Positions 1,922 through 30,272 of a DNA stretch of 52,034 bases are shown here, in pieces. The notes beneath the pieces are model-generated. The model was not told the origin of the DNA. It saw nothing but the letters and a program-made list of their open reading frames with translations, and ran no database searches. This DNA is from an uncultured Bacteroidales bacterium (GTDB taxonomy: Bacteria > Bacteroidota > Bacteroidia > Bacteroidales > UBA7960): contig CAYMDX010000001.1 of NCBI GenBank assembly GCA_964389125.1, positions 1-52,034 on the forward strand. The letters are read 5' to 3'. The number at the start of each line of letters is the position of its first letter. Position 1 is the first letter of the stretch. Made by a program: the position numbers and the translations under genes.

Positions 1922-1926
1922 ACCGA

Positions 1927-3051: not shown

Positions 3052-3060
3052 GGGGTTTAC

Positions 3061-3807: not shown

Positions 3808-3939
3808 ATCCCTTTTCTTTTAAATGATCATTATACATGCCGGGATGAACAGGCAGGCTGAATTCACCAGCAAACCCATTCACCCCGGAACGCTTATATT
3901 TTATGTATAAATATACATGAAATTTGGTGACAATCGTTA

Positions 3940-6900: not shown

Positions 6901-8229
6901 CGTATACCCCCATGGCTCATAATAGGAAGGAAAGACAGTGGTATCAAACCCAAGGAGCAGATCATAATAATTCATATTGAGCAGTCCGTCCTCACCATTG
7001 AGGTAAGCCGGTATGAAAACAACTTTTACACTGTCGTCCGGACGGTTAAAAAGCCCGGCCTGCTGAAAATGCTGTAATATGATATCACTCTCAGGATCAT
7101 GAAGCTTATGTGTAAGATACTCGTTGTGCAAAGGGTTCTTGTAATCCTGCGATTGCATCCTGTCAGCTACCTCCTTGCGGGGACCATCGTGACCGGCAGG
7201 AATCATAATGAAGTTTACAACAGGATGATCCGGCTGTGCCCTGTTAATATTACCAAGGGATTCAATAAGGATATCAATCCCTTTATTACGATATTCATAC
7301 CTGCCGCTATGGGCGATAAGCAGCGTGTTTTCAGGAAGATCCTGGTTTAATAGTCCGCTGGCTACCCCTAATAATTTATTCCTTGCCTTTTGACGTTTTT
7401 CGCTTATCGTATCAGCAGAAGGCTTCAAGTGAGGGTCAAAGCCATTGGGAGTGATTACATCCGGCTTTTTACCAAGCAGGTACTCACACTCAGTTGCGGT
7501 ATTCGACGACACGGTCGTGAAAGAATCTGCGTTATGAGCCGCAACTTTTTCCAGGCTGAATTTTGAGGCAATGTTAAGCTCAGAGGCTTTCGCTTCGGGA
7601 TCTATCTGATCAAGCTGATCATATAGTGCCATACCACGTCCGGAAATGGATCGTCCAAGGGTTGTGGCATGTGTTGTAAACACTTTTCCTGCCTGAGGGA
7701 CACGATCTTTCAGGTACAAAACACCGGTTCCGGTCATCCACTCATGAAAATGCGCGACAAACCGGTCATGGGCAGTAAGATAGAAATCATAAAAACTCTC
7801 AATAACCTGTCCGACAGCATAGCCAAACATAGCCGGTTCCGTATAGTCCCACTGACCACTCAGGGAGTTAAGCCCGAACTTAAGCCAGAAATCACTGAAA
7901 ATCTTATCCTTCTGACTGAATAAAGGGGTGAAATCGACCAGAACAGCTACCGGTTGACCAGGTATCTGCCAGCGTCCGATACGCAGGTTGAGGCCCTCCT
8001 GTAAAGCATATTCACGCCAGGTACGGTACAACTCCTCATCTTCGATAAACTCCGGGTTGCGATGTGTTTCTTTCCATACATCAGGCCCGATCGTAATATA
8101 ATTGTCACCATAATGCTCCGTCAGAAGATGGGCTTTGGTACTGATAACAGTGTGTATCCCACCAATCTTATTACACACTTCCCAACTCGTTTCAAATATA
8201 TAATCCGCTTTTGTTTTCTGTTTGTTCAT
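3940..8229 (-). CDS. Fused GT3-type glycogen synthase / GT35 alpha-glucan phosphorylase
   Basis: Single uninterrupted 1429-aa ORF. The N-terminal ~560 aa starts FETSWEVCNKIGGIHTVISTKA (eukaryote-like GT3 glycogen synthase signature). The C-terminal ~830 aa carries WWTWNYEA (N-terminal region of alpha-glucan phosphorylases) and the PLP-lysine motif EASGTSGQKATLNGV. Confidence 0.85.
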   Translation of the reverse strand: MNKQKTKADYIFETSWEVCNKIGGIHTVISTKAHLLTEHYGDNYITIGPDVWKETHRNPEFIEDEELYRTWREYALQEGLNLRIGRWQIPGQPVAVLVDFTPLFSQKDKIFSDFWLKFGLNSLSGQWDYTEPAMFGYAVGQVIESFYDFYLTAHDRFVAHFHEWMTGTGVLYLKDRVPQAGKVFTTHATTLGRSISGRGMALYDQLDQIDPEAKASELNIASKFSLEKVAAHNADSFTTVSSNTATECEYLLGKKPDVITPNGFDPHLKPSADTISEKRQKARNKLLGVASGLLNQDLPENTLLIAHSGRYEYRNKGIDILIESLGNINRAQPDHPVVNFIMIPAGHDGPRKEVADRMQSQDYKNPLHNEYLTHKLHDPESDIILQHFQQAGLFNRPDDSVKVVFIPAYLNGEDGLLNMNYYDLLLGFDTTVFPSYYEPWGYTPMESIAMQVPTVTSSLSGFARWVTEFHKDAGVACHVLKRDDYNKKEVIEELTDLLKKWLQGVKDTAFTAADHESDPLAHGNLIDGRRKSREIADSISWEIQISYYEEAFQRAVKLSGERHEQFKDKKQPVWTVTMPPVDTMRPKWKKVTIDIKVPEPLKSLPELARNLWWTWNYEATELFETIDPELWESCKNNPVILLDNLSMDHYERLINDKAFMKKYDEVVNKFKDYMDAGKKKTSKQIAYYSMEYGLHETIKIYSGGLGILAGDHLKQASDDNSDLIGIGLLYRYGYFTQSLSLHGEQVDTYHPHDFASMSAVPVRDEKGKRIKISIAFPGRTLQARIWRVDVGRVPLYLLDTDISENAASDRFITHQLYGGDWENRFKQEFLLGIGGIRVLDALGLKPDVYHCNEGHAAFTGLERLRKIVMEDRLSFHEAMEVVRASSLFTTHTPVPAGHDFFSEDMLRTYMPHYADRLGISWNNFMGLGKMNPQDPDEDYSMSVLAAKLSQQINGVSKIHGGVSRNMLKDLYPGYFPEELHIGHVTNGVHYGSWTAKEWQQLYKETFGGNFLKDVSNPSAWEKIYDVPDKKIWDIRNARRKELLDFLRKRMLKNLERRQETPRKIYQLMDAVDENTLTVGFARRFATYKRAHLLFNDLERLSKIVNNPDRPVQFIYAGKAHPADKAGQELIKHILEISRRKEFQGKIIFLEDYDMELGRELVKGVDIWLNTPTRPMEASGTSGQKATLNGVMNFSVLDGWWAEGYVEETGWKLKEEKTFENQEFQNEMDAETIYNTFESEIVPMFYDHDKDGIPAEWVRWIKNCIAKVAPHYTNKRMLDDYFKTFYNPLFDSSERISKNKYKAARELVHWKNKIIRAWDSIEVVDKKLLSNSGKTLLLGELFRAELTLDIGDIQASTVGVEVIFVHQSTEGRREVVSVFEMKQKESKENQVTFTCEVPADRTGEFNYAFRMFPKNPALAHRQDFNLIRWI

Positions 8230-8550
8230 GATAATTGTTATTTATTTTAATAAATGATCTTCTCAAAAAGGAACGTGAAATTAAGAAAAATTTCAATACC
8301 CGAATGGCTATATGTAAGATCTTGTTAAAACCAGGCTTGACACTTGCATTACCGTAAGACCTAACTTCCAGTAACCGGTATTATTAGTCCACGGGGGTAG
8401 AGCCGACCCATCTGCTATTCTCCAGGTTCATACAATTACATATATCAAAGAAACACATAAGTTGTGCATTATGTTTATCCGGTAGTGGATAGGTGTATAG
8501 CATTTTTGATGATGGAAAAGGGTAAGAAACCAGGTGAAAACAGCGATAGG

Positions 8551-9558
8551 TCACTCGTCATACGATCGTCCGGCCGGTTCAGTAACCTGTTCCCATTCTT
8601 TCTCTTTACCTGACAGAAAGGCTTTCAGACGCTGACTGATGGTTTTTCTCTCCAGGGGCTTCAGGTCAGGCTGACCAGCGTTAACCCATGCGGTAAACCA
8701 GTAATTTCCAGCGGCCAGGGCGGCACGGCGCATTTGTCTTTCTACCATCTGATTCAGACTGATATGGAAAGCCTCGGAGAAATCACGGGAATACACCCGT
8801 GTTGTTGTCCGTCCCCGCATCTCCCAGGCATACATCATGTTTTTGGGAAGGTGTATCATCAGACTGTCAAACACATGATAGATGGTGTCTACTTTCAGAT
8901 GACTGGTTTTTACGAGGTCCCATGCTTCCGTCAGAGGGTCTGAAATGTATGTCGCCTGGCCGGTAAAATAGGTGTATTCTTCAGCATAAAGTTCCGGAAG
9001 GCGGCTTTCCCAGAAGGCATGTATCCCTCTTTCGGCGGGTGTCCTGCCATTATAGTATTTGGTGGTATGCAACGGCGTGCAGGCATCTGCTAGATAGTGA
9101 CCCAGGTGTGCAGAATGGAGGATGATCATGTCGACATCATTTTGTTTGAACGCATAGGTAAGCCGGTGCATCATCGTATGGATATGCCAGGGCAGAACGC
9201 CATATGTCATCAGGGTATCTTCGGTAAACTGTTCGACAGCATCTTCCCAGTTTCGTGGCATGACGGCGAAAGGATCCTCTCCGAAATGATCGATATCAAT
9301 ATAATGCCTGGGGGCTTCTCCTTCTACGGCATGGGCGCGACGGTCCGGGTCAATGGAACGTTCGGCGACGAATTCTATATGGTGTTTATACAGACCTATC
9401 ATTTCGGGTGGCAGGGTAAAAACAGCCATCCGGTTGATCTGCCGGTGTGCATGAAAGCCAAAGGTAAATCCCGTGGCTGGCAAAAGCAATAGGATGATGA
9501 AGGTCAATATCCCCGCTTTTGAAATAACGAAAAATGAAATGCCGGCAACCCTTCTCAT
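8551..9558 (-). CDS. Exported zinc-dependent phospholipase C / S1-P1 nuclease superfamily protein (tentative)
   Basis: 335 aa with a hydrophobic N-terminal signal. Predicted mature end FGFHAHRQIN. The His/Asp-rich segments HYIDIDHFGE and HSAHLGHYLADACTPLH resemble the Zn-site motifs of this fold. Assignment is from memory only. Confidence 0.5.
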   Translation of the reverse strand: MRRVAGISFFVISKAGILTFIILLLLPATGFTFGFHAHRQINRMAVFTLPPEMIGLYKHHIEFVAERSIDPDRRAHAVEGEAPRHYIDIDHFGEDPFAVMPRNWEDAVEQFTEDTLMTYGVLPWHIHTMMHRLTYAFKQNDVDMIILHSAHLGHYLADACTPLHTTKYYNGRTPAERGIHAFWESRLPELYAEEYTYFTGQATYISDPLTEAWDLVKTSHLKVDTIYHVFDSLMIHLPKNMMYAWEMRGRTTTRVYSRDFSEAFHISLNQMVERQMRRAALAAGNYWFTAWVNAGQPDLKPLERKTISQRLKAFLSGKEKEWEQVTEPAGRSYDE

Positions 9559-9631
9559 AACACATTATTATAGGCGATATAAAAGTCGACAAATAATGTA
9601 TTCTTTCCTACAAAAAGGATATTAAAAAACC

Positions 9632-10378
9632 TTAGAGGTTTATATTGCTTACCAAACGGTTACCCTCCAAAACGGGCACGATATCCGATACATCCCTGGT
9701 CAGGGCATAGGCAATATCTTTTTCGACTCCCAGTCCCTGAAGGCGTTGGTTGTGTGAAGCACTTTTCAAAAATGCCGGCAGATCATGCTTCGCAGTTTCC
9801 CACAGCGCCATCGCCGCCATGGTGGAGTCACAGTCCGTATAAAACTGTGTGCTATCCAGATACAGGATATGTCTGGCAACAGCCCCGGCAAATACACTAT
9901 CCTCCAGGCTAAAAGTATCTTTCCAGCCTGCACACAAAACGATAACCGGTTTCTTTGTGTTGACGGCGAATCGGGCAACGGCGGATATATTCGGGAAAGC
10001 ACCGGTAATAACGGTATTATTACCATTGGCGGCACACTGGATGGCCCTTGTACCGTTAGTGGTATTCAGCACGATGGTTTTATTGGTGATTCCTGCCTGC
10101 TGAATGGCCAGCGGGGAGTTACCCGTATCAGCAAAATCCAGGGGCTTCCCATTGCGTTCGCCGGCAGTAAAATACCCTTTGGCTTTCCATTCTTTACTCT
10201 CGTCAATGGATTCAACAGGCATAACCGCTTTTGCTCCGCTTTCGAGGGCGGCACTTATGGTGGTGGTGGCCCTGAAAATATCGACAACGATAACCAGGGC
10301 ATCATCCCGCTGATAGAGTGGCCAGGATATCGGTGAAAAACAAACCTGAATGGTATATGTATCTTTCCCTGAATGCAT
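9632..10378 (-). CDS. comB: 2-phosphosulfolactate phosphatase family protein (ComB-like)
   Basis: 248 aa. VVVDIFRATTTISAALESGA and FTAGERNGKP are typical of the ComB family. Confidence 0.72.
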   Translation of the reverse strand: MHSGKDTYTIQVCFSPISWPLYQRDDALVIVVDIFRATTTISAALESGAKAVMPVESIDESKEWKAKGYFTAGERNGKPLDFADTGNSPLAIQQAGITNKTIVLNTTNGTRAIQCAANGNNTVITGAFPNISAVARFAVNTKKPVIVLCAGWKDTFSLEDSVFAGAVARHILYLDSTQFYTDCDSTMAAMALWETAKHDLPAFLKSASHNQRLQGLGVEKDIAYALTRDVSDIVPVLEGNRLVSNINL

Positions 10379-10447
10379 GGTAGGGATCTTTTAAAACGAC
10401 CAACCTGACAGAATTACCTAATAATATAACTCTGTCTGTAATGCTGT

Positions 10448-11542
10448 CTACCGGGGTTTATAAAAAGGCAATGTAACAACTTTGCCCTTGAGGGCCTTGT
10501 TACGGATTTCGATGAATATCTCAGTTTCCGGTTGCTCAAAACCAGTTTTGACATACCCCATGCCAATGGGTTTTTGCAGGGTAGGCGACATGGTTCCGGA
10601 GGTCACTTCTCCAATGTTGTTACCATCTGCATCAAGTATGGCATACCCTTTTCGCGGGATGCCACGTTCCAGCAGTTCAAAACCGACCAGTTTACGGGAA
10701 ACGCCTTCCGTTTTTTCTTTAAGCAGGTTTTCGCGGTTAACCAGGTTTTTGCCTTCGACAAGCTTGGTTACCCATCCCAGACCGGCTTCTATGGGAGAGG
10801 TGGTTTCGTCGATATCGTTGCCATATAATAACAGGCCTGCTTCCAGGCGTAAAGTATCCCTTGCTGCCAGTCCAACCGGTTTGATGCCATATTCTTTTCC
10901 GGCTTCCAGCACGGCATCATAAATAGCCGGGCCGTCTTCATTATAAAAATATATCTCACATCCCCCGGATCCTGTATAGCCTGTATTAGAAAAGATCACA
11001 TTGTCAATGCCGGCAAAACGGATTACCTTAAAAGAGAAAAAAGGCAAGCTCTCCACCGGTTCATCGGTAAGTTTTTGCATGGCTTTCATAGCCAGGGGAC
11101 CCTGAACAGCCAGCTGGGAATACTGATCTGATGCGTTGGTGACGGTGGCACCGATGGTTTCATTCTGTTTGTTGATCCAGTCCAGGTCTTTCTGAATATT
11201 GGCGGCGTTAACCACCAACAGGAACTGCTCTTCATGAAAGCGATAAATGACAAAATCATCCACGATTCCGCCTTTATCGTTCGGGAAGCAGGTATACTGA
11301 ACCTTTCCATCTTTTAGTTTAGCGGCATTATTGGAGCTTACACGTTGCAGCAGGTCAAGGGCTTTGGGGCCTTCTACCCAAATTTCCCCCATATGGGATA
11401 CATCGAACACGCCGAGTTTTTCACGTACTGTTTCGTGTTCGATAGTGACTCCTTCAAATTGAACAGGCATATAATAGCCGGCAAAGGGCACCATTTTAGC
11501 GCCCATATCTTCATGCTTTTCTTTGAGAACAGTGGACTTCAT
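10448..11542 (-). CDS. gcvT: Glycine cleavage system aminomethyltransferase (T protein)
   Basis: 364 aa. GAKMVPFAGYYMPVQF, FDVSHMGEI, and end-to-end resemblance to GcvT. Confidence 0.93.
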   Translation of the reverse strand: MKSTVLKEKHEDMGAKMVPFAGYYMPVQFEGVTIEHETVREKLGVFDVSHMGEIWVEGPKALDLLQRVSSNNAAKLKDGKVQYTCFPNDKGGIVDDFVIYRFHEEQFLLVVNAANIQKDLDWINKQNETIGATVTNASDQYSQLAVQGPLAMKAMQKLTDEPVESLPFFSFKVIRFAGIDNVIFSNTGYTGSGGCEIYFYNEDGPAIYDAVLEAGKEYGIKPVGLAARDTLRLEAGLLLYGNDIDETTSPIEAGLGWVTKLVEGKNLVNRENLLKEKTEGVSRKLVGFELLERGIPRKGYAILDADGNNIGEVTSGTMSPTLQKPIGMGYVKTGFEQPETEIFIEIRNKALKGKVVTLPFYKPR

Positions 11543-11648
11543 CAGGTTTCTATATTTTTTGTATTTAACAATTATGTGAATTAAGGAATGGGCAAAAATA
11601 AGAAAATAGAGGAATTATAAGGTACCCAATTTTTCTGACTTCCAGAGT

Positions 11649-11684
11649 AAAGAAAAGGAGGAGCCTCCTAAACGAAACTCCTCC
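11649..11684 (-). terminator. Intrinsic terminator after the lipoprotein gene
   Basis: On the minus strand, GGAGGAG (complement of 11678-11684) pairs with CTCCTCC (complement of 11657-11663) around a 14-nt loop, followed by TTTTCTTT. It lies 28 nt downstream of the stop at 11712. Confidence 0.6.
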
Positions 11685-11711
11685 TTGACTTTTTTGGAAA
11701 AAAAATACCGG

Positions 11712-13049
11712 TTACTCTATATTTTCAATATAATTCACCAGCTCAAATTGTGGGGGATCGCCTGGTTCCGTGCAAATGTATTCTGCTTCCGGGAACCGAC
11801 GAACCCAATTGTCGGCAAACGTTGCAAAGCGCACATGGAAATGCACATCAATACCACCACGCTGAGGTTGCGCGTCAGGGTACGTATGCTGAAGCAATTC
11901 TATTAGTCCTTCTTCTTTGATGCGCCTTAACATTTCCTCCATCACCGCATCGGGTCCTTCGTTTTCATAGATCTCACCCAGCTCCGGATCGGCATATTCT
12001 CCGTTTTCCAGTTTATCAAGGCGACGTCCGACAATCCGGATATCAAAATTCTGATAAAAAGCGCTGGCGCCATAATAGTAGGCGAAATCATCGTAGCCGA
12101 ACTCTTGCTGACCAATGGGGTCAACCTCAACCAGGTACTCATAGTCTTCGCGATCCATGGTGAAAATCACGGTGGGATCGAAAGCCCAGCCCTCGGTTCC
12201 AAAAATATACTGCTCGGTTCGCTCTTCGACATACGGTGTCATCTCCCACTTTACGCCATCAAATACAAATTTATCGATGTTTTCAACCATTTGATTACCA
12301 TCATAATAATTGTATTTTATTACTTTTTCCGCATCCGGCAAAGCCATGGGGAACTTATTCTTTAGAAAAATGGGGATATGCACCTCCGGCGGATTATCCT
12401 CAGAGAAGTTATTATACGCGGCTACATCACCGCCGAATTCATCATAATCCTCAGGCGTCATCTCATAACCTACATATGGAACATTTTCCCTGGTTTCTAC
12501 CAATTCCCATTCACCATCAGTCAGTTCATACGTATCTTCATTTTTTACAATGTCGCCATTCGGGTTATAATTATAGATGATCTGCACCTGATCTTCTTCT
12601 TCTGCATCGGGGTACTCCCGCTCCAGCAGATCAGGGATGAACTGATGTGCAGGGCTATTGGGTGAAAAGGCGCCATCTATACCAAGAAATGCATAATCCT
12701 GATCGGTGAGCTCATAACCAAACCCTGCATCCCACCATTCGGGATGAATGAGCAGGTGGTTAAAGGTTACATTTGCGACACTTTCGTAGCTTAGTGTAAC
12801 ATACTGATCCGCCAGGATATCAGGAATGTAATCCATGGCAGGCATCGTGTCATTGAACGCATCATATTCTTCGATCACGCCACCAATGTCGCTATAGTCA
12901 CTACTTGTTAAGGTGTAGGTCACGTTCTCGCTGTGAGGCGGTATATCGTCATCCAGTTTTTCATACAGGTCTTCGTTGGGATCACATGCCTGCAACAGGA
13001 AAACAGCCGTTAAGGCTAATAGAAGGCTTATTTTGCTGATATATTTCAT
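11712..13049 (-). CDS. Acidic lipoprotein with four Y-x-[LM]-T-x-x-D-Y type repeats
   Basis: 445 aa. Signal plus lipobox MKYISKISLLLALTAVFLLQAC. Repeats YTLTSSDYSDIGG, YELTDQDYAFLG, YEMTPEDYDEFGG, FTMDREDYEYL. Starts 34 nt after the TonB-dependent receptor stop. Confidence 0.72.
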   Translation of the reverse strand: MKYISKISLLLALTAVFLLQACDPNEDLYEKLDDDIPPHSENVTYTLTSSDYSDIGGVIEEYDAFNDTMPAMDYIPDILADQYVTLSYESVANVTFNHLLIHPEWWDAGFGYELTDQDYAFLGIDGAFSPNSPAHQFIPDLLEREYPDAEEEDQVQIIYNYNPNGDIVKNEDTYELTDGEWELVETRENVPYVGYEMTPEDYDEFGGDVAAYNNFSEDNPPEVHIPIFLKNKFPMALPDAEKVIKYNYYDGNQMVENIDKFVFDGVKWEMTPYVEERTEQYIFGTEGWAFDPTVIFTMDREDYEYLVEVDPIGQQEFGYDDFAYYYGASAFYQNFDIRIVGRRLDKLENGEYADPELGEIYENEGPDAVMEEMLRRIKEEGLIELLQHTYPDAQPQRGGIDVHFHVRFATFADNWVRRFPEAEYICTEPGDPPQFELVNYIENIE

Positions 13050-13083
13050 AATGTGAAGTAGTTAAAGTTCGTAAATCATCCCG

Positions 13084-15660
13084 TTAAAAATCGATCTTCA
13101 GGGTAGTGGTCCATGATCGTCCCCATCCATAGTAGACCAGGGCAGTATCATAGTCAAATGATCTGCCATCGGTGGCATCCCTGATGGCTTCGGTATCAAA
13201 CACATTGTTTACATTGACGTATAAACTGGCATTCATACCGGCAATTTGGAAACGATAGCTCATATTCACATCCATGATTTGGTATGATGGCATTTGCCAG
13301 GAGTCTTCTCCGCGGGTTTCAGTGTCGCCTCTGTCTTCCACGTTAAAATCAGCGAAGAGGCGATCGTAATGGTTGGCGTCAAAACCCATCCGGAAATTAT
13401 CCATGACTTCATAACTTGCGCCAATCGCAGCGGTGGTTTGGGCACTGTTACCCACTCTGAGTCCCCCGGCATACACCTCAATACTGTCAAGCAATACCTG
13501 GTTTTCATCATAAATCTCGGCCGTGAGGTCGTCTTGCCATTTCCAGTCTCCATAGGAAAACATGCCGCGCACTTCAATGTCATCGGTCGGGCGCAGGGTA
13601 AAATCAACTTCCACACCCTGATGCAAGGCATTCAGGCCAGTGACATTGGCTATCACACCCTGTCCGAGGTTTCTGACAAGCGCCTTATCAAGCCATTCCG
13701 TTCTGTAAAGAATGACATTTGCCGCAACAAGTTCTGTCCGGAGACCATAGCCTGTTTCTGCAGAAAATACGCGTTCGTGCTTAACATCTTCATTAATGGT
13801 GTTGGTATAACCAACAAAGGCCCATCTGAAAAAGGGAGCCCTGGTAAAATAACCTGTATTGGCAAAGACGTTATGATGGTCGGTGATGTTATAATTACCA
13901 CCACCTTTGAGGCTCCATGCAAAAAAGTCGACCCAGTCAGTTTGTTGGGTGGGATCATCATCGGCATACTGAAAATAGTCGGTACGCCTATAGTTGGTAA
14001 GAGAGCCGGTTGTTGACACGAAAGCTGAATAGTCATCCGTGACATATTCGGCTTGTGCAAACAGGCCGCCCCACATCACCTCACCCAGGTTGTAGTAGTT
14101 TACCTTGTCTTCTTCCTGAAGCCTCGTGGAAGGATCGCGGTTGATGTCGCTGAATTCCTCATAGTGCGTGCCTCCAAGCAGATCGGTAATTTTCTGGTAA
14201 TGGTATCCTTTATAATAACGAAGGTCAAGGCCACCTGTAAAGGTGATGTTCTCATCATACTCGTGCTGTAACGTAGAAAGCATACCATACCAGTCATGGG
14301 CGTTTACCGCCATGGCCTGAACAGCTTTGGAGCCGGTTTCTGATAGGGCGTTTGCGTCCATTACGGCATCAAAGTCCAGTAAGCCATTCGGGGTAAACTT
14401 GGTTTGGTCGGTTGGCAGACCGGTATCGCGGTCGTATTGAAGCCAGTCGCTCCTTTCACCAATGATCCTGCGGCCACCACCGGATGAAATGGACAGATAA
14501 TAGGCGGTGGAAAGGGTCGTGTTGGGGCTTATAGACCAGTAATGATTCAGTGAAATTTGTGGTTTGTGATACTGGTTGTACGAGGCGCTGAATTCATCAC
14601 CATTCTTAATTCCGAGCGATGGGTTGTAACGGATACCATCGGGGTGATCGCGATAGGTTTGAATTCTTTGACGCGGCCAGCGCTGGTTATGCCATTGCGG
14701 TGCACCAAAAGCCGTAAGAGATAAGGTGTGGCTGCTGTTTATTTCTTTAGACACATTCAGAAAATAGGACCATCCTTCAAAATCCAAGCCCCGCACAAAA
14801 CCTTCACCCGACCTTCTTGCACCAAGAGCGGTAACAGCCCAGCCATTGTCCATCATTCCTGTAGACAAAGAAAAAGACTCTTCCCGGTAGCCATCATGTC
14901 CTATTCCATACCGGAGTGACCCTCCCTTGTTGGCATCAGTGCTTTGGGTGATGATGTTAATGGTGCCTCCCACTGAGCTGATGGCCAGTCGTGATGCACC
15001 AAGACCACGCTGTACCTGCATTGTTTCAGTCACATCAGAAAGGCCTGCCCAGTTTGACCAGTATACGCGTCCGTTCTCCATATCATTCACAGGCACACCA
15101 TTAACAAGTACACCTATGTTGTTGGAGTCAAAACCACGCATATTAATCCTTCCGTCACCAAATCCGCCAGCTTCACGCGTGGCATATACACTGGGTGTAG
15201 ACTGCAACAATTGAGGAAACTCCATGGTACCCAGGCGTTCTGTAATTTCCTCCGCGGAGATATTGGAGATAGCCACCGGGGTCTCACGGTCGCGGGCATA
15301 AGAGGAAACCACCATCACCTCCTGCAAGCCAATGGCACTTTCAACCATTACAATTCTTCCAAGGTCTTTATCGGTAGTGGCGTCCACCGTAAGCGTCTTT
15401 TCCTGATAACCCATATAGGTTATCCTGACAGAGTAGGTGCCAGGATCCACAGTAATTTGAAATTCTCCATCAAGATTAGTGGTTGTGCCGAAAGACCGGT
15501 CTGTATCCACATTTACGAACTCCAGAAGAGCCGAGGGTAACCGGTTTCCGTCTTCATCAACCACATGTCCCTGTATATCGGAGCTGTAAGCTTGATAACC
15601 TGTTAGCAGCATAAGAGCAGCCGCCATCAATAAGCTGATAAATAATTTCGGATTTTGCAT
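13084..15660 (-). CDS. TonB-dependent receptor with N-terminal carboxypeptidase-regulatory-like domain
   Basis: ATG at 15660 gives the signal peptide MQNPKLFISLLMAAALMLLTGYQAYS (ORF-track start 15741 is a likely over-extension). The CarboxypepD_reg-like stretch IQGHVVDEDGNRLP...YSVRITYMGYQ is followed by plug motifs (INMRGF, VLVNGVPVND) and a C-terminal ...TTLKIDF ending in an aromatic residue. Confidence 0.88.
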   Translation of the reverse strand: MQNPKLFISLLMAAALMLLTGYQAYSSDIQGHVVDEDGNRLPSALLEFVNVDTDRSFGTTTNLDGEFQITVDPGTYSVRITYMGYQEKTLTVDATTDKDLGRIVMVESAIGLQEVMVVSSYARDRETPVAISNISAEEITERLGTMEFPQLLQSTPSVYATREAGGFGDGRINMRGFDSNNIGVLVNGVPVNDMENGRVYWSNWAGLSDVTETMQVQRGLGASRLAISSVGGTINIITQSTDANKGGSLRYGIGHDGYREESFSLSTGMMDNGWAVTALGARRSGEGFVRGLDFEGWSYFLNVSKEINSSHTLSLTAFGAPQWHNQRWPRQRIQTYRDHPDGIRYNPSLGIKNGDEFSASYNQYHKPQISLNHYWSISPNTTLSTAYYLSISSGGGRRIIGERSDWLQYDRDTGLPTDQTKFTPNGLLDFDAVMDANALSETGSKAVQAMAVNAHDWYGMLSTLQHEYDENITFTGGLDLRYYKGYHYQKITDLLGGTHYEEFSDINRDPSTRLQEEDKVNYYNLGEVMWGGLFAQAEYVTDDYSAFVSTTGSLTNYRRTDYFQYADDDPTQQTDWVDFFAWSLKGGGNYNITDHHNVFANTGYFTRAPFFRWAFVGYTNTINEDVKHERVFSAETGYGLRTELVAANVILYRTEWLDKALVRNLGQGVIANVTGLNALHQGVEVDFTLRPTDDIEVRGMFSYGDWKWQDDLTAEIYDENQVLLDSIEVYAGGLRVGNSAQTTAAIGASYEVMDNFRMGFDANHYDRLFADFNVEDRGDTETRGEDSWQMPSYQIMDVNMSYRFQIAGMNASLYVNVNNVFDTEAIRDATDGRSFDYDTALVYYGWGRSWTTTLKIDF

Positions 15661-15723
15661 TTTGAATGTCCGTTTGAGATTTGGTTTAAAAAACTTCATG
15701 CATAGATCTGTAAGCGTATTTAA

Positions 15724-15770
15724 GCAAACAGCCGGTAACAATCATATATAAATAATTACCAGCTGTTTGC
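15724..15770 (-). promoter_or_regulatory. Intercistronic hairpin (15-bp stem) between the T9SS-cargo gene and the TonB-dependent receptor gene
   Basis: GCAAACAGCCGGTAA (15724-15738) pairs with TTACCAGCTGTTTGC (15756-15770) at 14 of 15 positions around a 17-nt AT-rich loop. No clear U-tract follows on the minus strand. Confidence 0.6.
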
Positions 15771-15792
15771 AAGTATTATCCATTCATTGATA

Positions 15793-18042
15793 TTATTGTA
15801 TTTGCAATTTTTGGGTGCTTATCTTATCACCTGAACTGATCTCTATCACATACATACCCGGGCTCAGTGAAGCTACATCCAACTGTGTACGGCCCAACTC
15901 CTGACCTGACTTTTCAAGGACCAGCTGTCCGTGCATATTGTAAATGCGCACATGATCCAAATGCGCATCGCTACTCACCACGGTCACATAATCGGTGGCC
16001 GGATTGGGGTAGATGCGTAAATCGAGTGGATCGATCTCGCTTACACTAGTTGTTGGCTCCATAAAGTCGTCCAGCATACGGGGCAATATCTGCATTTCGG
16101 CCTGAAACTGCCCGACAACAGCAATCAGATCTTTGGGTGTTTCCGGAACCGGTTCACCAATATAATCAACCGCATTGGGGTCATTTGGAATATAGACCTG
16201 GCTTTCGGCAGTATCATCATAGATTGCATAGCCGGTATTATCCTCGAACGTTTCTTCTTCAATTTCGTCATGATCAAAGTGGACATTTCTGACAACGACC
16301 AGTTGGGCCTGATGCTCAGGTGTGAGATCAGCCAGGGTCATTTCTACCGGTTCGATTTCATTGTCTTGCGAAGTAGCTTCACCGGGATCTTCGGTAGGTC
16401 CTATCTGCATCAGATTAGAAAACTCACTCAAATGACCTGTCAGTCCGGTGATCCCATCATAAAGCTCATATTCTGATTCAACGATACCATCGGGATCATC
16501 TACAACGATCGCTGCGGTCTCGTCCTGAATATAAAACTGGCCGCGATAACCAAGTTGTTGATGTGTGATGAAGACTTCCCCGGTAATTATGTATGGCAAA
16601 TCACCCATTTCCTGCTCTCTCAGGGTGGCAATATCCGGAACCTCAATGGCTCCCGGGGCAAAATCAAGCATCACCTCGTGAATCCACCATCTGTGTGCAA
16701 GCTCACCCTGATAATTAAAGGCAAGATAAACCACCTCACCGGTAAAATCACCCAGGCTTAATAAGGTTTCCGCAGGATCTTCCACACCTATATCTCCGTC
16801 ATCAGATTCGTATAGTTCCTGAAAATGTTCGTGTTCGGGGTTTCCGCTACCTGTTGAGATCATCACGCCACTGTAGCCATATTCTGTCATAAACTGGTTA
16901 TTCTCAAAGAAAGTGAACAGCATGTTTTCATCATCTGGGAGCTGGATCTGCGGTGTGATGAGCCAGCTGTTGGCTTGCTCTCCCTCAGCAGTGTCATCGT
17001 GATATGCACTGCCATCATCCTGTTCCCAGCCACCTTCTCCGAGCGAATAATGAGCCCAGTGCTCCGGCGGGAATTCCTCACCGTCAAATGTTTCTTCGAA
17101 AGGGAATTCGGTAACCATATCCGGATCAATCTCAACCAGCACGGCGGTATGTGTTAAATCACTGTCCGCGACAGTTACCTGACCATGCGTGGTATGATAC
17201 CCCTCTTTGGACAGGGTGTAATCATAGGTGCCAACAGGAATTTCCTCAAAGAAGTATGGAGCTGATTCGATTGTCTCTCCATAAAACTCCAGCTGTGCAT
17301 CATCAATCTCATTGTTGTCTTCGTCAACAACATTGAAAGTCACATCATAAGCATCGAGGGGTTCAATGTCGTTCCAGTTTCTGGATGAGATGAAGTCACC
17401 TTCTGACCTGGAGTTTGGTAATCCGGTCATGTTAAGATCGCCAGCCGGGACAGGGTCACCTATATAATCAACACCATAGAAGGTAGTTCTAAACGTGGCT
17501 TCAGTCTCTCCGTCGCTGATATCATATTCAGTACCATTTGAAAAAGTCTGATCCGCATCAACAAAGTACACTTCCTCAATGGTAACCAGTCTGGCCTGAT
17601 AATCCATGAAGTTATTCACAAAATCATCCATGGTAATAACAACCGGCTCCACCTCGTTATCACTCGAGGTAGCCTCCCCCGGATCTTCTTCCGGCACAAA
17701 CTGTAACATATTTCCAAATGTGCTGAGTGTCCCGGTAATTCCGGTAATGCCATCATAGATGTCATAATCGGTGGTAATGATGCCACCATCATCATCAATC
17801 ATTATACCCGCTGTTTCATCCTGGATATACTTCTGGTTCCGGAAGCCCTGCTGATAGGTGAGAATGGCTTCACCGGTCAGTTCGTAGACTGTTTCGCCAT
17901 CGTCTTCAGCTTCTCGCAGCTCCTGAATGGTCTCCACCTCGACTACATCTTTGTGATTGCCATTATCAGCCATGCTGCCCAGCGGAATAAACATCAGGAA
18001 AGAAATTAAAACTGCCGTAATTGTAAGTAAATAAGTTTTCAT
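15793..18042 (-). CDS. T9SS-sorted multidomain surface/secreted protein (duplicated OB-like module, no catalytic motif seen)
   Basis: 749 aa with an N-terminal signal peptide. The C-terminal ~78 aa LRIYPNPATDYVTV...GMYVIEISSGDKISTQKLQIQ match the Por/T9SS sorting-domain pattern. The centre holds a CarboxypepD_reg-like stretch (YDVTFNVVDEDNNEI...GTYDYTLSKEGYH) and a jelly-roll-like segment (FEETFDGEEFPPEHW...ANSWLITPQI...). Confidence 0.85.
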   Translation of the reverse strand: MKTYLLTITAVLISFLMFIPLGSMADNGNHKDVVEVETIQELREAEDDGETVYELTGEAILTYQQGFRNQKYIQDETAGIMIDDDGGIITTDYDIYDGITGITGTLSTFGNMLQFVPEEDPGEATSSDNEVEPVVITMDDFVNNFMDYQARLVTIEEVYFVDADQTFSNGTEYDISDGETEATFRTTFYGVDYIGDPVPAGDLNMTGLPNSRSEGDFISSRNWNDIEPLDAYDVTFNVVDEDNNEIDDAQLEFYGETIESAPYFFEEIPVGTYDYTLSKEGYHTTHGQVTVADSDLTHTAVLVEIDPDMVTEFPFEETFDGEEFPPEHWAHYSLGEGGWEQDDGSAYHDDTAEGEQANSWLITPQIQLPDDENMLFTFFENNQFMTEYGYSGVMISTGSGNPEHEHFQELYESDDGDIGVEDPAETLLSLGDFTGEVVYLAFNYQGELAHRWWIHEVMLDFAPGAIEVPDIATLREQEMGDLPYIITGEVFITHQQLGYRGQFYIQDETAAIVVDDPDGIVESEYELYDGITGLTGHLSEFSNLMQIGPTEDPGEATSQDNEIEPVEMTLADLTPEHQAQLVVVRNVHFDHDEIEEETFEDNTGYAIYDDTAESQVYIPNDPNAVDYIGEPVPETPKDLIAVVGQFQAEMQILPRMLDDFMEPTTSVSEIDPLDLRIYPNPATDYVTVVSSDAHLDHVRIYNMHGQLVLEKSGQELGRTQLDVASLSPGMYVIEISSGDKISTQKLQIQ
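16063..16647 (-). repeat. Intragenic duplicated module, copy B (aa ~466-660 of the T9SS cargo)
   Basis: PDIATLREQEMGDLPYIITGEVFITHQQLGYRGQFYIQDETAAIVVDDPDGIVESEYELYDGITGLTGHLSEFSNLMQIGPTEDPGEATS... Both copies also share a downstream DYIG(D/E)PVP segment. Confidence 0.8.
17359..17937 (-). repeat. Intragenic duplicated module, copy A (aa ~36-228 of the T9SS cargo)
   Basis: ETIQELREAEDDGETVYELTGEAILTYQQGFRNQKYIQDETAGIMIDDDGGIITTDYDIYDGITGITGTLSTFGNMLQFVPEEDPGEATS... aligns by eye with copy B. Confidence 0.8.
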
Positions 18043-18274
18043 AGTATTGTGTTTTGGTTCATAAATTGTTGTTGTGTAAACGTTGTTGAGAATCTCTATA
18101 ACTATTTTTATTTAATATCTGATATACAATATATTAAGAATGTGTGTAACCCAGTGTCTTGGTTTTGTTACAATTAGGCTAAAATAACAAAAAATTGTAA
18201 AATTCTAACGCTTTTCTTGTCAATTCGCTTTGATATTTCTTTACAAACAATTGGTTTAAGAAAGCAAAAACATT

Positions 18275-19465
18275 TTATTGAATAGCCTGTGTTACAAGGG
18301 ATGCGGCATCCTTAAGCAGTATGGCCGAGGAGGCTTTCATCCCTGATTCGTCAATGATCTGTTTGCCCTCCTCTGCATTTGTGCCCTGTAACCTGACGAT
18401 GACCGGTATGTCGATCTTCCCGATATTATTGAAGGCATCAACAATACCGCGGGCCACTCTGTCGCAACGAACAATACCGCCAAAGATGTTGATCAGAATA
18501 GCGGACACATCCGGGTCTTTCAGGATGATGCGAAAAGCCTGTTCAACCCTCCCGGCGTCGGCTGAACCACCGACATCCAGGAAGTTGGCGGGTTCACCGC
18601 CGCTTAGTTTGATGATATCCATCGTGGCCATGGCCAGACCTGCACCGTTGACCATACAGCCTACCCGGCCATCAAGCTTTATATAATTCAGATCATATTT
18701 TCCGGCTTCCACCTCAATGGGATCTTCTTCCATGATATCCCGCATTTCCAGGATGTCCGGATGACGGAACAGTGCATTATCGTCAATGGTCATCTTGGTA
18801 TCAACAACCAGGATTTTGTTATCGGCGGTCTTGAATAGCGGGTTAATCTCTATAAGCGATGCATCATTCTCCAGGAAGGCTTTGACCAGTTTTGGCACAA
18901 AACGTACCATGTTCTTAAAAGCCTCTCCCGTGAGCTGAAGGTTAAAGGCGATGCGCCGGCATTGAAAAGGTTGGATGCCCACAAGCGGATCAATGGTTTC
19001 CGTAAAGATCTGATCCGGGGTTTCGGCAGCCACTTCCTCAATGTTGATGCCACCGCGTGGGGAATACACGATCATGTTGCGGGAGGTTTGCCGGTTCAGA
19101 AGTACACTCATATAAAATTCGGCCGGTTCCGCTTCTCCAGGATAGTAGATACCCTGCTCCACAAGTACTTTTCTGACCAGTTTTCCCTGTGCCGATGTTT
19201 GTGGTGTAATGAGCTGCATCCCCAAAATCGCATTCGCATGGGCTTCCACTTCCTGCAGGTTTTTGGCGATTTTGACTCCCCCACCTTTACCACGACCACC
19301 GGCATGAACCTGAGCCTTAACAGCCCACGTCGAAACACCCGTTGCCTTTTCTATGGCCTCCGCAGCCGGAATGGCCTCTTTTTCATTCTCAACCAGCTTG
19401 CCTTGTGCAACCGGTACATCATAGCGCATCAATAGCTGTTTTCCCTGGTATTCATGAAGATTCAT
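18275..19465 (-). CDS. sucC: Succinate--CoA ligase (ADP-forming) beta subunit
   Basis: 396 aa. MNLHEYQGKQLL N-terminus, ATP-grasp region VKAQVHAGGRGKGGGVK, C-terminal CoA-ligase domain. Confidence 0.93.
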   Translation of the reverse strand: MNLHEYQGKQLLMRYDVPVAQGKLVENEKEAIPAAEAIEKATGVSTWAVKAQVHAGGRGKGGGVKIAKNLQEVEAHANAILGMQLITPQTSAQGKLVRKVLVEQGIYYPGEAEPAEFYMSVLLNRQTSRNMIVYSPRGGINIEEVAAETPDQIFTETIDPLVGIQPFQCRRIAFNLQLTGEAFKNMVRFVPKLVKAFLENDASLIEINPLFKTADNKILVVDTKMTIDDNALFRHPDILEMRDIMEEDPIEVEAGKYDLNYIKLDGRVGCMVNGAGLAMATMDIIKLSGGEPANFLDVGGSADAGRVEQAFRIILKDPDVSAILINIFGGIVRCDRVARGIVDAFNNIGKIDIPVIVRLQGTNAEEGKQIIDESGMKASSAILLKDAASLVTQAIQ

Positions 19466-20211: not shown

Positions 20212-21075
20212 ATGTCTAAAGCCATTAAAAAGCCATACCTAAAGAAGCCTGCATGGCTGCGTACACAACTGACGAAGGCAAATCACTACCATAACGTAAA
20301 AGACAGAATCGATTCGGGTGGCCTTCATACCATCTGCGAAAGTGGTTCATGCCCTAACAAGGGTGAATGCTGGGGAGAAGGAACGGCCACCTTTATGATC
20401 CTCGGCGACATATGCACCCGCAGTTGCCGCTTTTGCAATGTTCACACAGGCAAGCCGCTGCCGCCTGACCCGGGAGAGCCGGAAAAACTGGCAACAACCA
20501 TTCAGTCGATGGGGGTCAGACATGCCGTCATTACCAGTGTTGACCGGGACGACCTGCCGGATGGCGGCGCTTCTTTCTGGGCCGACACGATACGGACAAT
20601 AAAGCAAACCGCCCCGGAAACGACCATTGAAACCCTGATACCTGATTTTAAAGGTCACCTGGAGAATGTTCAACAGGTCATGGACGCCGGACCTGAGGTA
20701 ATCAGCCACAACCTTGAAACTGTCCGAAGGCTGACGAAAGAAGTGCGTGTATATGCCAGTTATGAAAACAGCCTGAAAGTACTGGATTATATTGCCACAA
20801 ACAGTTCGATACGAACAAAGTCGGGGATCATGCTCGGGCTGGGGGAGACCGAAGAGGAAATCCTGGAAACCATGGGCGACCTGCGCGCTGTAAAATGTGA
20901 AGTTCTTACGCTGGGTCAGTACCTGCAGCCTTCCGCCAAGTTGCTGCCCGTACAAAAATATATACACCCGGACGATTTTGACCGCTATGGTAAGATCGCC
21001 AGGGAAAAAGGCTTTTTATTTGTTGAAAGTGCGCCACTTGTAAGATCTTCTTATCATGCCATCAATCATGTGTGA
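20212..21075 (+). CDS. lipA: Lipoyl synthase (radical SAM)
   Basis: 287 aa. N-terminal cluster CESGSCPNKGEC and radical-SAM motif CTRSCRFCNV. Confidence 0.95.
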   Translation: MSKAIKKPYLKKPAWLRTQLTKANHYHNVKDRIDSGGLHTICESGSCPNKGECWGEGTATFMILGDICTRSCRFCNVHTGKPLPPDPGEPEKLATTIQSMGVRHAVITSVDRDDLPDGGASFWADTIRTIKQTAPETTIETLIPDFKGHLENVQQVMDAGPEVISHNLETVRRLTKEVRVYASYENSLKVLDYIATNSSIRTKSGIMLGLGETEEEILETMGDLRAVKCEVLTLGQYLQPSAKLLPVQKYIHPDDFDRYGKIAREKGFLFVESAPLVRSSYHAINHV

Positions 21076-21106
21076 TAAAAAGGTATTACATTCCCGCGGT
21101 TTTGAG

Positions 21107-22333
21107 ATGAAAGGGATGACTATCAAGTACTTAACGTGTTTTGTGTGTTATTTTGCCTTCATGATCGCGTTCGCCGGCACATCCGCAACGGGCGCCAAAG
21201 ATTCTGCTTTTGCTTCTGATGACATCAAACCGGGCGCGTGGCGAACCGGGCTTTACTTCCCCATGCTGGAAGGGAAACGGATTGCCGTGGCCGGTAATCA
21301 TACATCCCGGATAGGTGACACGCATCTGGTGGATACGATGCTGGCCGAGGGGCTAGAGCTGGTTAAAGTCTTCAGTCCCGAACACGGCTTCAGGGGAGAA
21401 GCCGCTGCCGGTGAAGCTGTTGAAAGTGAAGTGGATGAGGTAACCGGCCTGCCCGTGATAAGCCTTTACGGCACAAACCGGCGCCCCACGCCCCGGCAAT
21501 TGCGAGACGTAGATATCATTGTTTTTGATATACAGGATGTGGGTACCCGTTTTTATACCTATATCTCTACCATGACCTACCTGATGGAGGAGGCAGCTGA
21601 ACAGGATATCCCGTTCCTTATACTGGACAGACCCAACCCCAATGGTCATTATGTAGACGGGCCGGTATTGGAGCCTGCGTATACCTCTTTTGTCGGTTTG
21701 CACAGCGTTCCTATCGTGCATGGGATGACAGTGGGTGAATATGCCTATATGGTATATGGTGAAGGCTGGATGGGGGAGGATGTTCGTATGGATCTACGTG
21801 TTGTACCAGTTGAGGATTATACCCATGAAAGCCGGTATCACCTGCCGGAAGCCCCTTCGCCAAACCTGCCGAACATGCATGCAGTATATCTGTATCCATC
21901 ATTGTGCCTGTTTGAAGGTACCAGCTTAAGTGTTGGCCGGGGAACCGATAAGCCGTTCCAGATTTTCGGGCACCCTGACCTGCCGGCGGAGTACTATCCT
22001 TACAGGTTCACACCCGAAAGTGTTCCGGCAGCACCGGACCCGCCGGCTAAAGGGCAGTCATGCAACGGCTTATATCCGGGGGATACCCCACTTCCAAAGC
22101 TGGAGAAAAAAGACCGGCTTAACTTGTCATGGCTGATAACCAGTTACCGGCATTATCAGGGAGAAACTTTTTTTAATGACTTTTTTGACAAGCTGGCCGG
22201 AAATGCCGCGCTTCGCAATCAAATACAAAACGGCTGGTCAGCTGATGAAATAAGGGAATCCTGGCAGGAAGAACTTAAGCAGTTTAAAGCAATCAGATCA
22301 CAATACCTGTTGTATCCGGATTTTGAAGAATAA
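21107..22333 (+). CDS. DUF1343 family protein (YbbC/NamZ-like exo-beta-N-acetylmuramidase family)
   Basis: ATG at 21107 gives a signal-like N-terminus MKGMTIKYLTCFVCYFAFMIAFAG. The ORF-track start at 21056 overlaps lipA. Body motifs FSPEHGFRG, FDIQDVGTRFYTY and LDRPNP are as recalled for DUF1343. Confidence 0.72.
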   Translation: MKGMTIKYLTCFVCYFAFMIAFAGTSATGAKDSAFASDDIKPGAWRTGLYFPMLEGKRIAVAGNHTSRIGDTHLVDTMLAEGLELVKVFSPEHGFRGEAAAGEAVESEVDEVTGLPVISLYGTNRRPTPRQLRDVDIIVFDIQDVGTRFYTYISTMTYLMEEAAEQDIPFLILDRPNPNGHYVDGPVLEPAYTSFVGLHSVPIVHGMTVGEYAYMVYGEGWMGEDVRMDLRVVPVEDYTHESRYHLPEAPSPNLPNMHAVYLYPSLCLFEGTSLSVGRGTDKPFQIFGHPDLPAEYYPYRFTPESVPAAPDPPAKGQSCNGLYPGDTPLPKLEKKDRLNLSWLITSYRHYQGETFFNDFFDKLAGNAALRNQIQNGWSADEIRESWQEELKQFKAIRSQYLLYPDFEE

Positions 22334-30065: not shown

Positions 30066-30272
30066 AACGATCAATCAGAACCTGGAAATAAAGGAAATAG
30101 TTCGTGTATTATTGTGTGTTTAATAATATAGCCCTATAACTACAACAACAAATAAAACCTTATTTATGTTTAGTCTACCTATATCATCAAAATATAGACA
30201 GATTTTCTTACAAAAGAAAAATTTAATCGTAATTTAGCCACATAATACTTTCATTTTCAAAAAAACAAAGCT

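Follow-up and report, generated by a model that had tools for sequence, protein, structure and literature searches.

The window, a stretch of 52,034 nucleotides from an uncultured Bacteroidales bacterium (contig CAYMDX010000001.1), carries on its minus strand a three-gene outer-membrane locus. The genes encode a type IX secretion system (T9SS) cargo protein, a TonB-dependent receptor and a lipoprotein. We propose that the locus is probably an environmental, soda-lake variant of the Bacteroidota family of nucleic-acid uptake systems, which comprises ddb-like loci and genes of the natural-transformation type, and that it captures and imports extracellular DNA. The three co-directional open reading frames (ORFs) were called as follows.

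15793..18042, minus strand: T9SS cargo of 749 aa with two DUF5689 modules, the presumed DNA-capture protein and analogue of DdbD and RA0C_RS04920 (ORF, Pfam, AlphaFold2 (AF2) model and Foldseek).
13084..15660, minus strand: TonB-dependent receptor of 858 aa, Pv-type DdbC homologue, with signal peptide, CarboxypepD_reg domain (aa 29-117), plug (aa 124-233) and barrel (Pfam, BLASTP).
11712..13049, minus strand: surface lipoprotein of 445 aa, obligate receptor partner, with lipobox LLQAC22, three tandem alpha/beta repeats and a C-terminal domain.

So far, only two systems of TonB-dependent DNA uptake have been studied in Bacteroidota: transformation in Riemerella (2021) and ddb in Bacteroides (2025). 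In B. thetaiotaomicron, ddbABCDEF is needed for the depletion of exogenous DNA (PMC12478041, Sharan et al., PNAS 2025), and it encodes three nucleases (DdbA, DdbB and DdbF), a TonB-dependent transporter (DdbC), a protein with DUF5689 (DdbD) and a lipoprotein (DdbE) (PMC12478041). AlphaFold3 predicts that DdbD binds to DdbC, and DdbD resembles the HIN domain of p202, which binds double-stranded DNA (dsDNA); ddb-like loci are divided into a Bt type and a Pv type, and the subtypes are Bt1, Bt2, Pv1 and Pv2 (PMC12478041). In Riemerella anatipestifer, the CarboxypepD_reg outer-membrane protein RA0C_RS04915 is essential for natural transformation, as is the adjacent RA0C_RS04920, which has choice-of-anchor J, DUF5689 and DUF5017 domains (PMC8459023). 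Riemerella tonB mutants lose transformation (PMC8383284). An earlier note on this DNA had put the locus forward as a candidate for an undescribed system; it is not one, because homologous loci were published in 2021 (PMC8459023) and 2025 (PMC12478041).

The receptor was compared by BLASTP with the DdbC sequences of Bt1, Bt2, Pv1 and Pv2, which were taken from Table S3 of bioRxiv 10.1101/2025.03.18.642099. It was 48% identical to Pv2 DdbC of Phocaeicola vulgatus (WP_117829583) over 861 aa (819 bits, 99% coverage), 41% identical to Pv1, 23% to Bt2 (E 1e-52) and 24% to Bt1 (E 1e-40). Pv1 and Pv2 DdbC share 44.6% identity, so the window receptor is closer to Pv2 than Pv1 is. Judged by these alignments, the receptor is a Pv-type DdbC homologue; with 48% identity to Pv2 it stays below the rule for a named subtype (>50% identity, >75% coverage) and is thus Pv-type outside the four subtypes. 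The mechanical ORF starts at a TTG and spans 13084-15741, but the ATG form of 858 aa is backed by homologues that align from residue 1-5. Pfam detected CarboxypepD_reg and Plug in the receptor and no SusD match beside it, in agreement with the earlier note, which had described a CarboxypepD_reg receptor of this length without a SusD partner. The SusC/RagA signature TIGR04056 was not among its NCBIfam matches, and a search of PDB sequences returned no match at E <= 0.001. An assignment as siderophore, B12 or haem receptor was rejected, the corresponding NCBIfam matches being weak, confined to the plug and far under their cut-offs. In some related loci a second TonB-dependent receptor paralogue (~900 aa, ~30% identical to the window receptor) adjoins the receptor-lipoprotein pair, either upstream and co-directional (L033, L035 and L057) or divergent (L072).

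The partner of the receptor could also be traced to the Pv type. In the P. vulgatus Pv2 locus (L085), whose receptor is 99% identical to the published DdbC, a protein of 630 aa begins 21 nt after DdbC. Its sole Pfam match is DUF5017 at aa 269-361, and the window lipoprotein aligned on either side of that domain: aa 17-208 with aa 15-241 (E 2e-11), and aa 174-407 with aa 377-596 (30% identity, E 2e-24). On these alignments the window lipoprotein is the Pv-type partner in a short form that lacks the ~180-aa DUF5017 insert. When 1.84 billion representatives were searched with a profile, 1042 clusters (50% identity) fell into the lipoprotein family at E <= 1e-3, and 486 did so under the stricter limit of E <= 1e-30. 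Family members are either short (~420-470 aa) or long (~600-660 aa, with the insert near profile position 160), and the short form also occurs beside a gut relative of the receptor (L088). Within the window protein, three repeats (aa 38-105, 106-189 and 190-286), whose profile hidden Markov models find one another at E 1e-10 to 1e-25, precede a distinct C-terminal domain (aa 287-445). With a pI of 4.05 and a net charge of -71, it is the very acidic repeat lipoprotein that had been read from the sequence earlier. The motif CDPN(K/E)DLYE, directly after the lipobox, is nearly invariant across the family. Acidic residues after the lipobox Cys are compatible with surface export as judged from sequence, although the motif is not an exact match to the C(x/xx)(D/E)(D/E) rule given in PMC12478041. 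The lipoprotein had no Pfam or NCBIfam match and its PDB sequence search was empty. [quoted passage not shown]

The linkage of the three genes was followed in 84 related loci, mostly from metagenome-assembled genomes (MAGs) of Bacteroidales from soda-lake and other saline sediments. The nearest relative is L006 (isolate 20BLK6-1.bin.134), with a lipoprotein 96% identical to that of the window. Receptor and lipoprotein genes were adjacent and co-directional in all 78 loci that have both; ten seeming exceptions reflected a late alignment start in long lipoproteins or slightly wider gaps, and on inspection the genes abut. Close relatives were defined by a lipoprotein at least 45% identical, and the cargo was counted as linked when it lay within 10 kb of the pair. 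This was the case in 39 of the 40 assessable close relatives, L053 being the sole fully assessable close locus without it; contig ends truncate 13 close loci. None of the 24 distant relatives, of which 12 could be assessed in full, had a cargo gene within 10 kb. The placement of the cargo differed among the 39 close loci. In 15 it is upstream and co-directional, as in the window; in 21 it is convergent and lies directly downstream; and in three it is ~6 kb downstream. The upstream arrangement reads NamZ-LipA-SucC-cargo-receptor-lipoprotein-GcvT-ComB, and the downstream arrangement TPR-GyrA-ClpB-receptor-lipoprotein-(cargo, opposite strand)-RecF-DciA. In the window itself, ClpB-GyrA-TPR occupy 40.9-47.6 kb, whereas RecF is found at 1.9-3.1 kb. 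The association of cargo and pair has therefore outlasted inversion and relocation between two chromosomal contexts (SucC...GcvT and ClpB...RecF), which argues for a functional connection and, as far as gene order can tell, for the three genes belonging together. Conservation of the trio, which had been suggested as a check, was thus found in full for receptor and lipoprotein; for the cargo it held only in the closer clade, and there the cargo was often convergent.

The cargo supplies the presumed link to DNA binding. Its domains, as resolved by profile searches and by an AF2 model with a pLDDT of 90.5, are listed here.

17968..18042, minus strand: type I signal peptide, aa 1-25, MKTYLLTITAVLISFLMFIPLGSMA (by inspection; in the model, a helix at 2-23 is followed by a low-pLDDT linker).
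17359..17952, minus strand: DUF5689 module 1, aa 31-228, tandem-OB (oligonucleotide/oligosaccharide-binding) or HIN-like (Pfam, Foldseek; conserved R68, K71, R185 and R221).
17128..17358, minus strand: immunoglobulin (Ig)-like beta-sandwich, aa 229-305, PEGA- or CarboxypepD_reg-like (weak Pfam PEGA match, E 4e-5; Foldseek match to 2nsm, the regulatory domain of carboxypeptidase N).
16657..17127, minus strand: jelly-roll, aa 306-462, like choice-of-anchor J, DUF5017 and cleaved-adhesin domains (NCBIfam, tblastn, Foldseek).
16057..16656, minus strand: DUF5689 module 2, aa 463-662 (best Pfam stretch 483-659; conserved R500, R617 and R655).
15796..16026, minus strand: T9SS type A C-terminal sorting domain, aa 673-749 (TIGR04183, PF18962 and PDB sequence matches).

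DUF5689 (PF18942) matched the cargo in two stretches (E 3e-20, 73 bits against a cut-off of 28.6), and the 396 homologues found are called 'DUF5689 domain-containing protein' wherever the source gives a name. A duplicated module had been noticed before; its two copies, at aa 31-228 and 463-662, share 49% identity (E 7e-47). Conserved basic residues lie at equivalent sites in both modules (R68/K71/R185/R221 and R500/R617/R655), three Arg being shared, and these Arg and Lys are candidate phosphate contacts on the basis of their conservation. In a Foldseek search of the PDB, the cargo model matched the HINab domain of p204 bound to dsDNA (5z7d) at E 4e-5 and probability 0.99, suggesting that the DUF5689 modules would be HIN-like tandem OB folds. 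Like the HIN-200 domains of p202, p204 and AIM2, which bind the dsDNA backbone without sequence specificity, each module is a predicted OB pair of ~200 aa. There is no detectable sequence homology between the two, Pfam HIN having no match in the cargo, so the likeness is restricted to the fold; the window modules are also strongly acidic, in contrast to the basic DNA-binding surfaces of HIN domains. The earlier note had likened the duplicated module to the OB-fold region of ExeM/NucH-type nucleases. An OB-type fold was recovered, but no sequence similarity to ExeM/NucH: no NCBIfam or Pfam match at E <= 0.1 and no endonuclease/exonuclease/phosphatase (EEP) domain were found, and a relationship to these nucleases was rejected. 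The comparison may reflect shared accessory domains, as DUF5689 co-occurs with LTD in other T9SS proteins (P0218-P0233), which join DUF5689 to LTD and carbohydrate-binding module (CBM)-like domains. Some cargo relatives are longer, at about 940 aa, and have three DUF5689 modules.

The central jelly-roll matched NCBIfam choice_anch_J at 31.9 bits (cut-off 30). The DUF5017 domain of a DdbD-like protein from a related locus (L084) matched the same region by tblastn (16666-17058), and Foldseek aligned it with the K1 and K3 adhesin domains of Kgp, the Eph ligand-binding domain and Eph/MAM jelly-rolls. A DUF5017-type domain is thus present in three places, the long lipoproteins, the C-terminus of DdbD-like proteins and the middle of the cargo; the DUF5017 / choice-of-anchor J domain is shuffled among them, which speaks for the proposed reading.

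The cargo has the attributes of a type A T9SS substrate, a signal peptide and a sorting domain, as the earlier note had seen in this 749-aa protein. TIGR04183 (E 1e-14, 54.2 bits, cut-off 23) and PF18962, Por_Secre_tail (E 8e-16, 58.5 bits, cut-off 27), both matched at aa 677-749, and the C-terminal domain also matched other T9SS C-terminal domains among PDB sequences. No T9SS machinery genes were found in the 52-kb window. Sequence and model together suggest that the cargo is a secreted or surface-anchored protein, presumed to bind DNA.

Genes for nucleic-acid metabolism were found beside related pairs. In L084 (Salinivirgaceae MAG, 1717-11902), an Exo_endo_phos_3 (EEP) nuclease gene lies directly upstream of a Pv-type receptor and a long lipoprotein; this locus also has a divergent Bt-type DdbC (36-37% identity to Bt1/Bt2) and a protein with DUF5689, DUF6359 and DUF5017. 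In L090 (Carboxylicivirga sp. RSCT41, 7196-14352), a TetR gene, a receptor and a 620-aa DUF5017 lipoprotein, in this order, are followed directly downstream by a gene for a protein with Endonuclease_1, LTD and Por_Secre_tail domains, which from its domain content is a T9SS-secreted nuclease. Being a named strain, RSCT41 may offer a tractable model. In L064, L073 and L077 the lipoprotein gene is followed by one for a type I phosphodiesterase / nucleotide pyrophosphatase. The large subunit of ribonucleotide reductase (RNR) directly adjoins the module, downstream of the pair, in 12 loci of several lineages (L003, L004, L033, L043, L046, L057, L058, L064, L075, L076, L077 and L082), which may hint at a link to deoxynucleotide supply or may be plain synteny. 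Pairs without a nucleic-acid-related neighbour also occur (L087, L088, L089 and L091). TetR regulators flank the pair in L001, L002, L005, L018, L022 and L090. The tentative guess of extracellular DNA made in the earlier note has become the best-supported substrate, given the 48% identity to DdbC and the presence of DUF5689 in DdbD and RA0C_RS04920.

Several results weigh against the proposed capture and import of DNA by the trio. No nuclease domain was detected in the three proteins or in the flanking SucC, GcvT, ComB and LipA (Pfam, NCBIfam), and neither the three genes nor those directly beside them showed a phosphatase or another catalytic domain; nucleases are 'consistently' part of ddb-like loci (PMC12478041). 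Pv2, the nearest subtype to have been characterised, lacks a secreted nuclease, and Pv2 strains showed minimal DNA depletion (PMC12478041). Given this minimal depletion, experimental support for DNA transport by Pv-type loci and their receptors is weak. The cargo has a net charge of -135, with 21% D+E and only 2.9% K+R (22 K+R in 749 aa), and each DUF5689 module has a net charge of about -37 to -40. In the T9SS family with two or three DUF5689 modules, all 56 members examined were acidic (net -47 to -135), the window cargo being the extreme. Such acidity sits uneasily with DNA binding, unless cations form bridges or a limited basic patch is enough; bridging by cations could plausibly work at high salt. 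The global TM-score of the HIN match was low, since query and target are both multidomain, and the Foldseek search of the PDB revealed no recognisable ligand-binding fold in the lipoprotein. Finally, the cargo gene is convergent to the pair in 24 of the 39 cargo-bearing loci (~60%), and from gene orientation co-transcription with the cargo is not a conserved feature.

In view of these results, it is conceivable, though unlikely, that the pair imports something other than nucleic acid, such as another polyanion, a cationic or metal-bound compound, a peptide or a glycan. The cargo would be the adhesin or binder for this substrate, and the DNA link would come only from the annotation of distant relatives. 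The extreme acidity of cargo and lipoprotein, the lack of an enzyme in the locus and the poor DNA depletion by Pv2 strains would suit such a substrate, as would the low identity (23-24%) of the receptor to the experimentally deleted Bt1 DdbC. The many pairs without a nucleic-acid-related neighbour (such as L087, L088 and L089) and the resemblance of the jelly-roll and Ig domains to adhesin and carbohydrate-binding modules point the same way. However, nucleases, a phosphodiesterase, a Bt-type DdbC/DdbD pair and RNR stand beside the pair independently in different lineages. The HIN-like fold of DUF5689 and the three Arg conserved at equivalent sites of both modules also speak for DNA. The acidity itself is expected for exported proteins of a haloalkaliphile and is much lower in relatives: in the DdbD-like protein of L084, the DUF5689 domain carries a net charge of only -8.

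The orientation of the cargo bears on a second alternative, namely that the receptor and lipoprotein function on their own and the DUF5689 protein is independent of them, merely syntenic in one clade. The cargo is missing from the vicinity of the pair in all distant relatives and in L053, it is often convergent in close ones, and in the window a 132-nt spacer with a conserved hairpin parts its gene from that of the receptor. We regard this separation as quite improbable, given that the linkage has outlasted rearrangement, that DUF5689 proteins are direct partners of DdbC-type receptors in other lineages, and that the cargo bears the DUF5017-like domain which the short lipoprotein lost relative to the long forms.

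Returning to DNA uptake by the trio, we infer a mechanism from the homologies, architecture, predicted folds and linkage described above; the inference extends to the identity of the ligand, a complex of receptor and lipoprotein, passage of the ligand from the cargo to the receptor, and a role in the cell. The cargo would cross the inner membrane by Sec and then be exported by the T9SS through its type A C-terminal domain, to be displayed on the surface or released. Its two DUF5689 modules would bind extracellular DNA or fragments of it without sequence specificity, probably via a few conserved Arg and Lys and perhaps aided by cations. The ligand would then be handed to a complex of the DdbC-type receptor and the surface lipoprotein, with the lipoprotein as partner or lid, like SusD or DdbD. 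TonB-energised import would bring DNA fragments or oligonucleotides into the periplasm, where they could serve nucleotide, phosphorus or nitrogen salvage.

The same machinery could instead serve natural transformation rather than feeding. The cargo, displayed on the surface, would then catch dsDNA in place of a competence pilus, and the pair would import long DNA for ComEC/DprA-dependent recombination, as has been proposed for Riemerella anatipestifer. This is suggested by the requirement for RA0C_RS04915 and RA0C_RS04920 and the loss of transformation in tonB mutants of Riemerella, and by the locus, in which all three domain types recur and a nuclease is lacking, as would suit the import of intact DNA. 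In addition, a NamZ / DUF1343 gene (exo-beta-N-acetylmuramidase family; 21056-22333, plus strand) lies 3 kb upstream of the locus, and the DUF1343 gene RA0C_RS09020 is among the Riemerella genes essential for natural transformation (PMC8459023). The proximity of NamZ is probably coincidental, however, because NamZ-LipA-SucC synteny is conserved in the clade and the adjacency is therefore ordinary. No ComEC, ComF, DprA or ComEA-like genes were found in the 52-kb window, and the genes next to related pairs encode enzymes of catabolism or salvage, namely nucleases, a phosphodiesterase and RNR. We therefore think a function in transformation rather doubtful. We likewise put little weight on a nuclease-independent form of capture and import, in which an extremely acidic, T9SS-displayed cargo with two or three HIN-like DUF5689 modules would take the part of a competence pilus and catch DNA through bridging cations where salt and pH are high, and the receptor and new-fold lipoprotein would pull long DNA across the outer membrane. 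If true, it would amount to a route for transformation or whole-DNA uptake in environmental Bacteroidales, with the T9SS coupled to a TonB-dependent transporter.

The locus can be set against the published systems part by part. It has a DdbC-type transporter, an adjacent partner protein and a DUF5689 protein (on the T9SS cargo, not on a lipoprotein); it has no nuclease genes, and its receptor lies below the 50% subtype threshold. With Pv-type ddb loci it shares full-length receptor homology, a homologous lipoprotein immediately downstream and a logic like that of a polysaccharide utilisation locus (PUL) without SusD, and with Pv2 also the lack of a secreted nuclease in the locus. It differs from them in a receptor identity just below the 50% cut-off, in its short lipoprotein of 445 aa without the DUF5017 insert, and in its host, a lineage of haloalkaliphilic sediment Bacteroidales known from MAGs. 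It also links a T9SS-exported protein with duplicated DUF5689 to the pair, whereas gut DdbD is a separate DUF5689 protein and the T9SS is unmentioned in PMC12478041. Bt1 ddbABCDEF likewise combines a TonB-dependent receptor, a DUF5689 protein of HIN-like fold and a further surface lipoprotein, but the receptors are only ~24% identical, Bt1 DdbC lacks the N-terminal CarboxypepD_reg domain of the window receptor, and Bt1 has three nucleases where the present locus has none. The Riemerella module, compared by domain description only, places a CarboxypepD_reg barrel beside DUF5689 and DUF5017 / choice-of-anchor J domains, and all three domain types are present in the window locus. In Riemerella, one adjacent protein has both domains, whereas the window locus has a T9SS cargo with duplicated DUF5689 upstream and, as a third component, an insert-less lipoprotein beside the receptor.

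A PUL-like capture-and-import system in which non-SusD proteins stand beside a non-SusC receptor had been proposed earlier and is supported. As in SusC/SusD PULs, the layout is co-directional and operon-like, with a surface lipoprotein, a CarboxypepD_reg receptor and accessory surface binders. A SusCD PUL proper was ruled out: the receptor is shorter and lacks TIGR04056, there is no SusD fold, and Pfam and NCBIfam searches detected no SusD, hydrolase, lyase or nuclease domain in the three locus proteins, and no glycoside hydrolase or other carbohydrate-active enzyme. The absence of catalytic motifs from the trio is also what the earlier note had reported.

New relative to this literature are the T9SS-cargo DUF5689 protein with duplicated modules, the short insert-less lipoprotein as universal receptor partner, and the habitat. 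The Pv-type branch thereby extends to free-living haloalkaliphilic sediment Bacteroidales, for which extracellular DNA is a plausible source of phosphorus and nitrogen. Its conserved core is the receptor together with a lipoprotein family of ~1,000 clusters at 50% identity, the lipoprotein body having no Pfam model or structural relative, and the DUF5689 module has been recruited as T9SS cargo. The locus yields testable candidates for a question of the 2025 paper, the role of nuclease-poor Pv-type loci and the ligands of their partner proteins.

The layout and flanks of the locus were re-computed and agree with the earlier description of three co-directional genes between sucC and gcvT. The spacers measure 132 nt between cargo and receptor genes (15661-15792) and 34 nt between receptor and lipoprotein genes (13050-13083), and the AT-rich spacer upstream of the cargo gene (18043-18274) is 232 nt long with 26% G+C. 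Upstream lies SucC (18275-19465; ATP-grasp_2 and Ligase_CoA by Pfam) and downstream GcvT (10448-11542; GCV_T was found in its homologue). Three putative regulatory elements were located.

11655..11686, minus strand: intrinsic-terminator-like hairpin ending the unit, with a 13-bp stem including 6 G-C pairs, followed by TTCTTT.
18194..18223, minus strand: sigma-70-like promoter match TTGACA-18-TACAAT in the 232-nt AT-rich spacer 5' of the cargo gene (11/12 consensus match only).
15724..15770, minus strand: 15-nt inverted repeat GCAAACAGCnGGTAA / TTACCnGCTGTTTGC around a 17-nt loop, located between the cargo and receptor genes and not followed by a T-run.

The first of these, a hairpin with its T-run, corresponds to the intrinsic terminator that had been placed at 11649-11684. 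The Bacteroidota promoter motif TAnnTTTG was absent from all three spacers of the locus, and an Rfam search at E <= 1 for an RNA element that could serve as a clue to the ligand gave just one chance small RNA match. The inverted repeat is conserved in L007, an 80% relative, where its stem differs by a compensatory T>C / A>G exchange, but it has decayed in L006, the 96% relative. It may form an RNA hairpin that sets the ratio of cargo to receptor expression, or act as an operator.

Beyond GcvT, the window contains a 335-aa ORF (8551-9558, minus strand) with an N-terminal hydrophobic segment and the His-rich motifs FGFHAHRQ... and RHYIDIDHF; its homologues come after GcvT-ComB in 13 related loci. 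The 'GFHAH...HYID' pattern may resemble Zn-dependent phospholipase C (PLC) or S1/P1-type phosphoesterases. If the ORF encoded a nuclease, this would bear on the claim that the locus has no enzyme. A hidden S1/P1- or PLC-like nuclease was unsupported by Pfam, NCBIfam and PDB sequence searches.

Two further observations concern more distant parts of the window. An 803-aa TonB-dependent receptor with CarboxypepD_reg and Plug (27663-30074, minus strand) is followed by a 259-aa ORF without a Pfam match (26779-27558, minus strand), forming a second non-SusCD pair of a receptor and a small protein. At 3940-8229 on the minus strand, a 1429-aa fusion protein joins an N-terminal glycogen synthase (Glycogen_syn / GT5 / GT1) to DUF3417 and an alpha-glucan phosphorylase.

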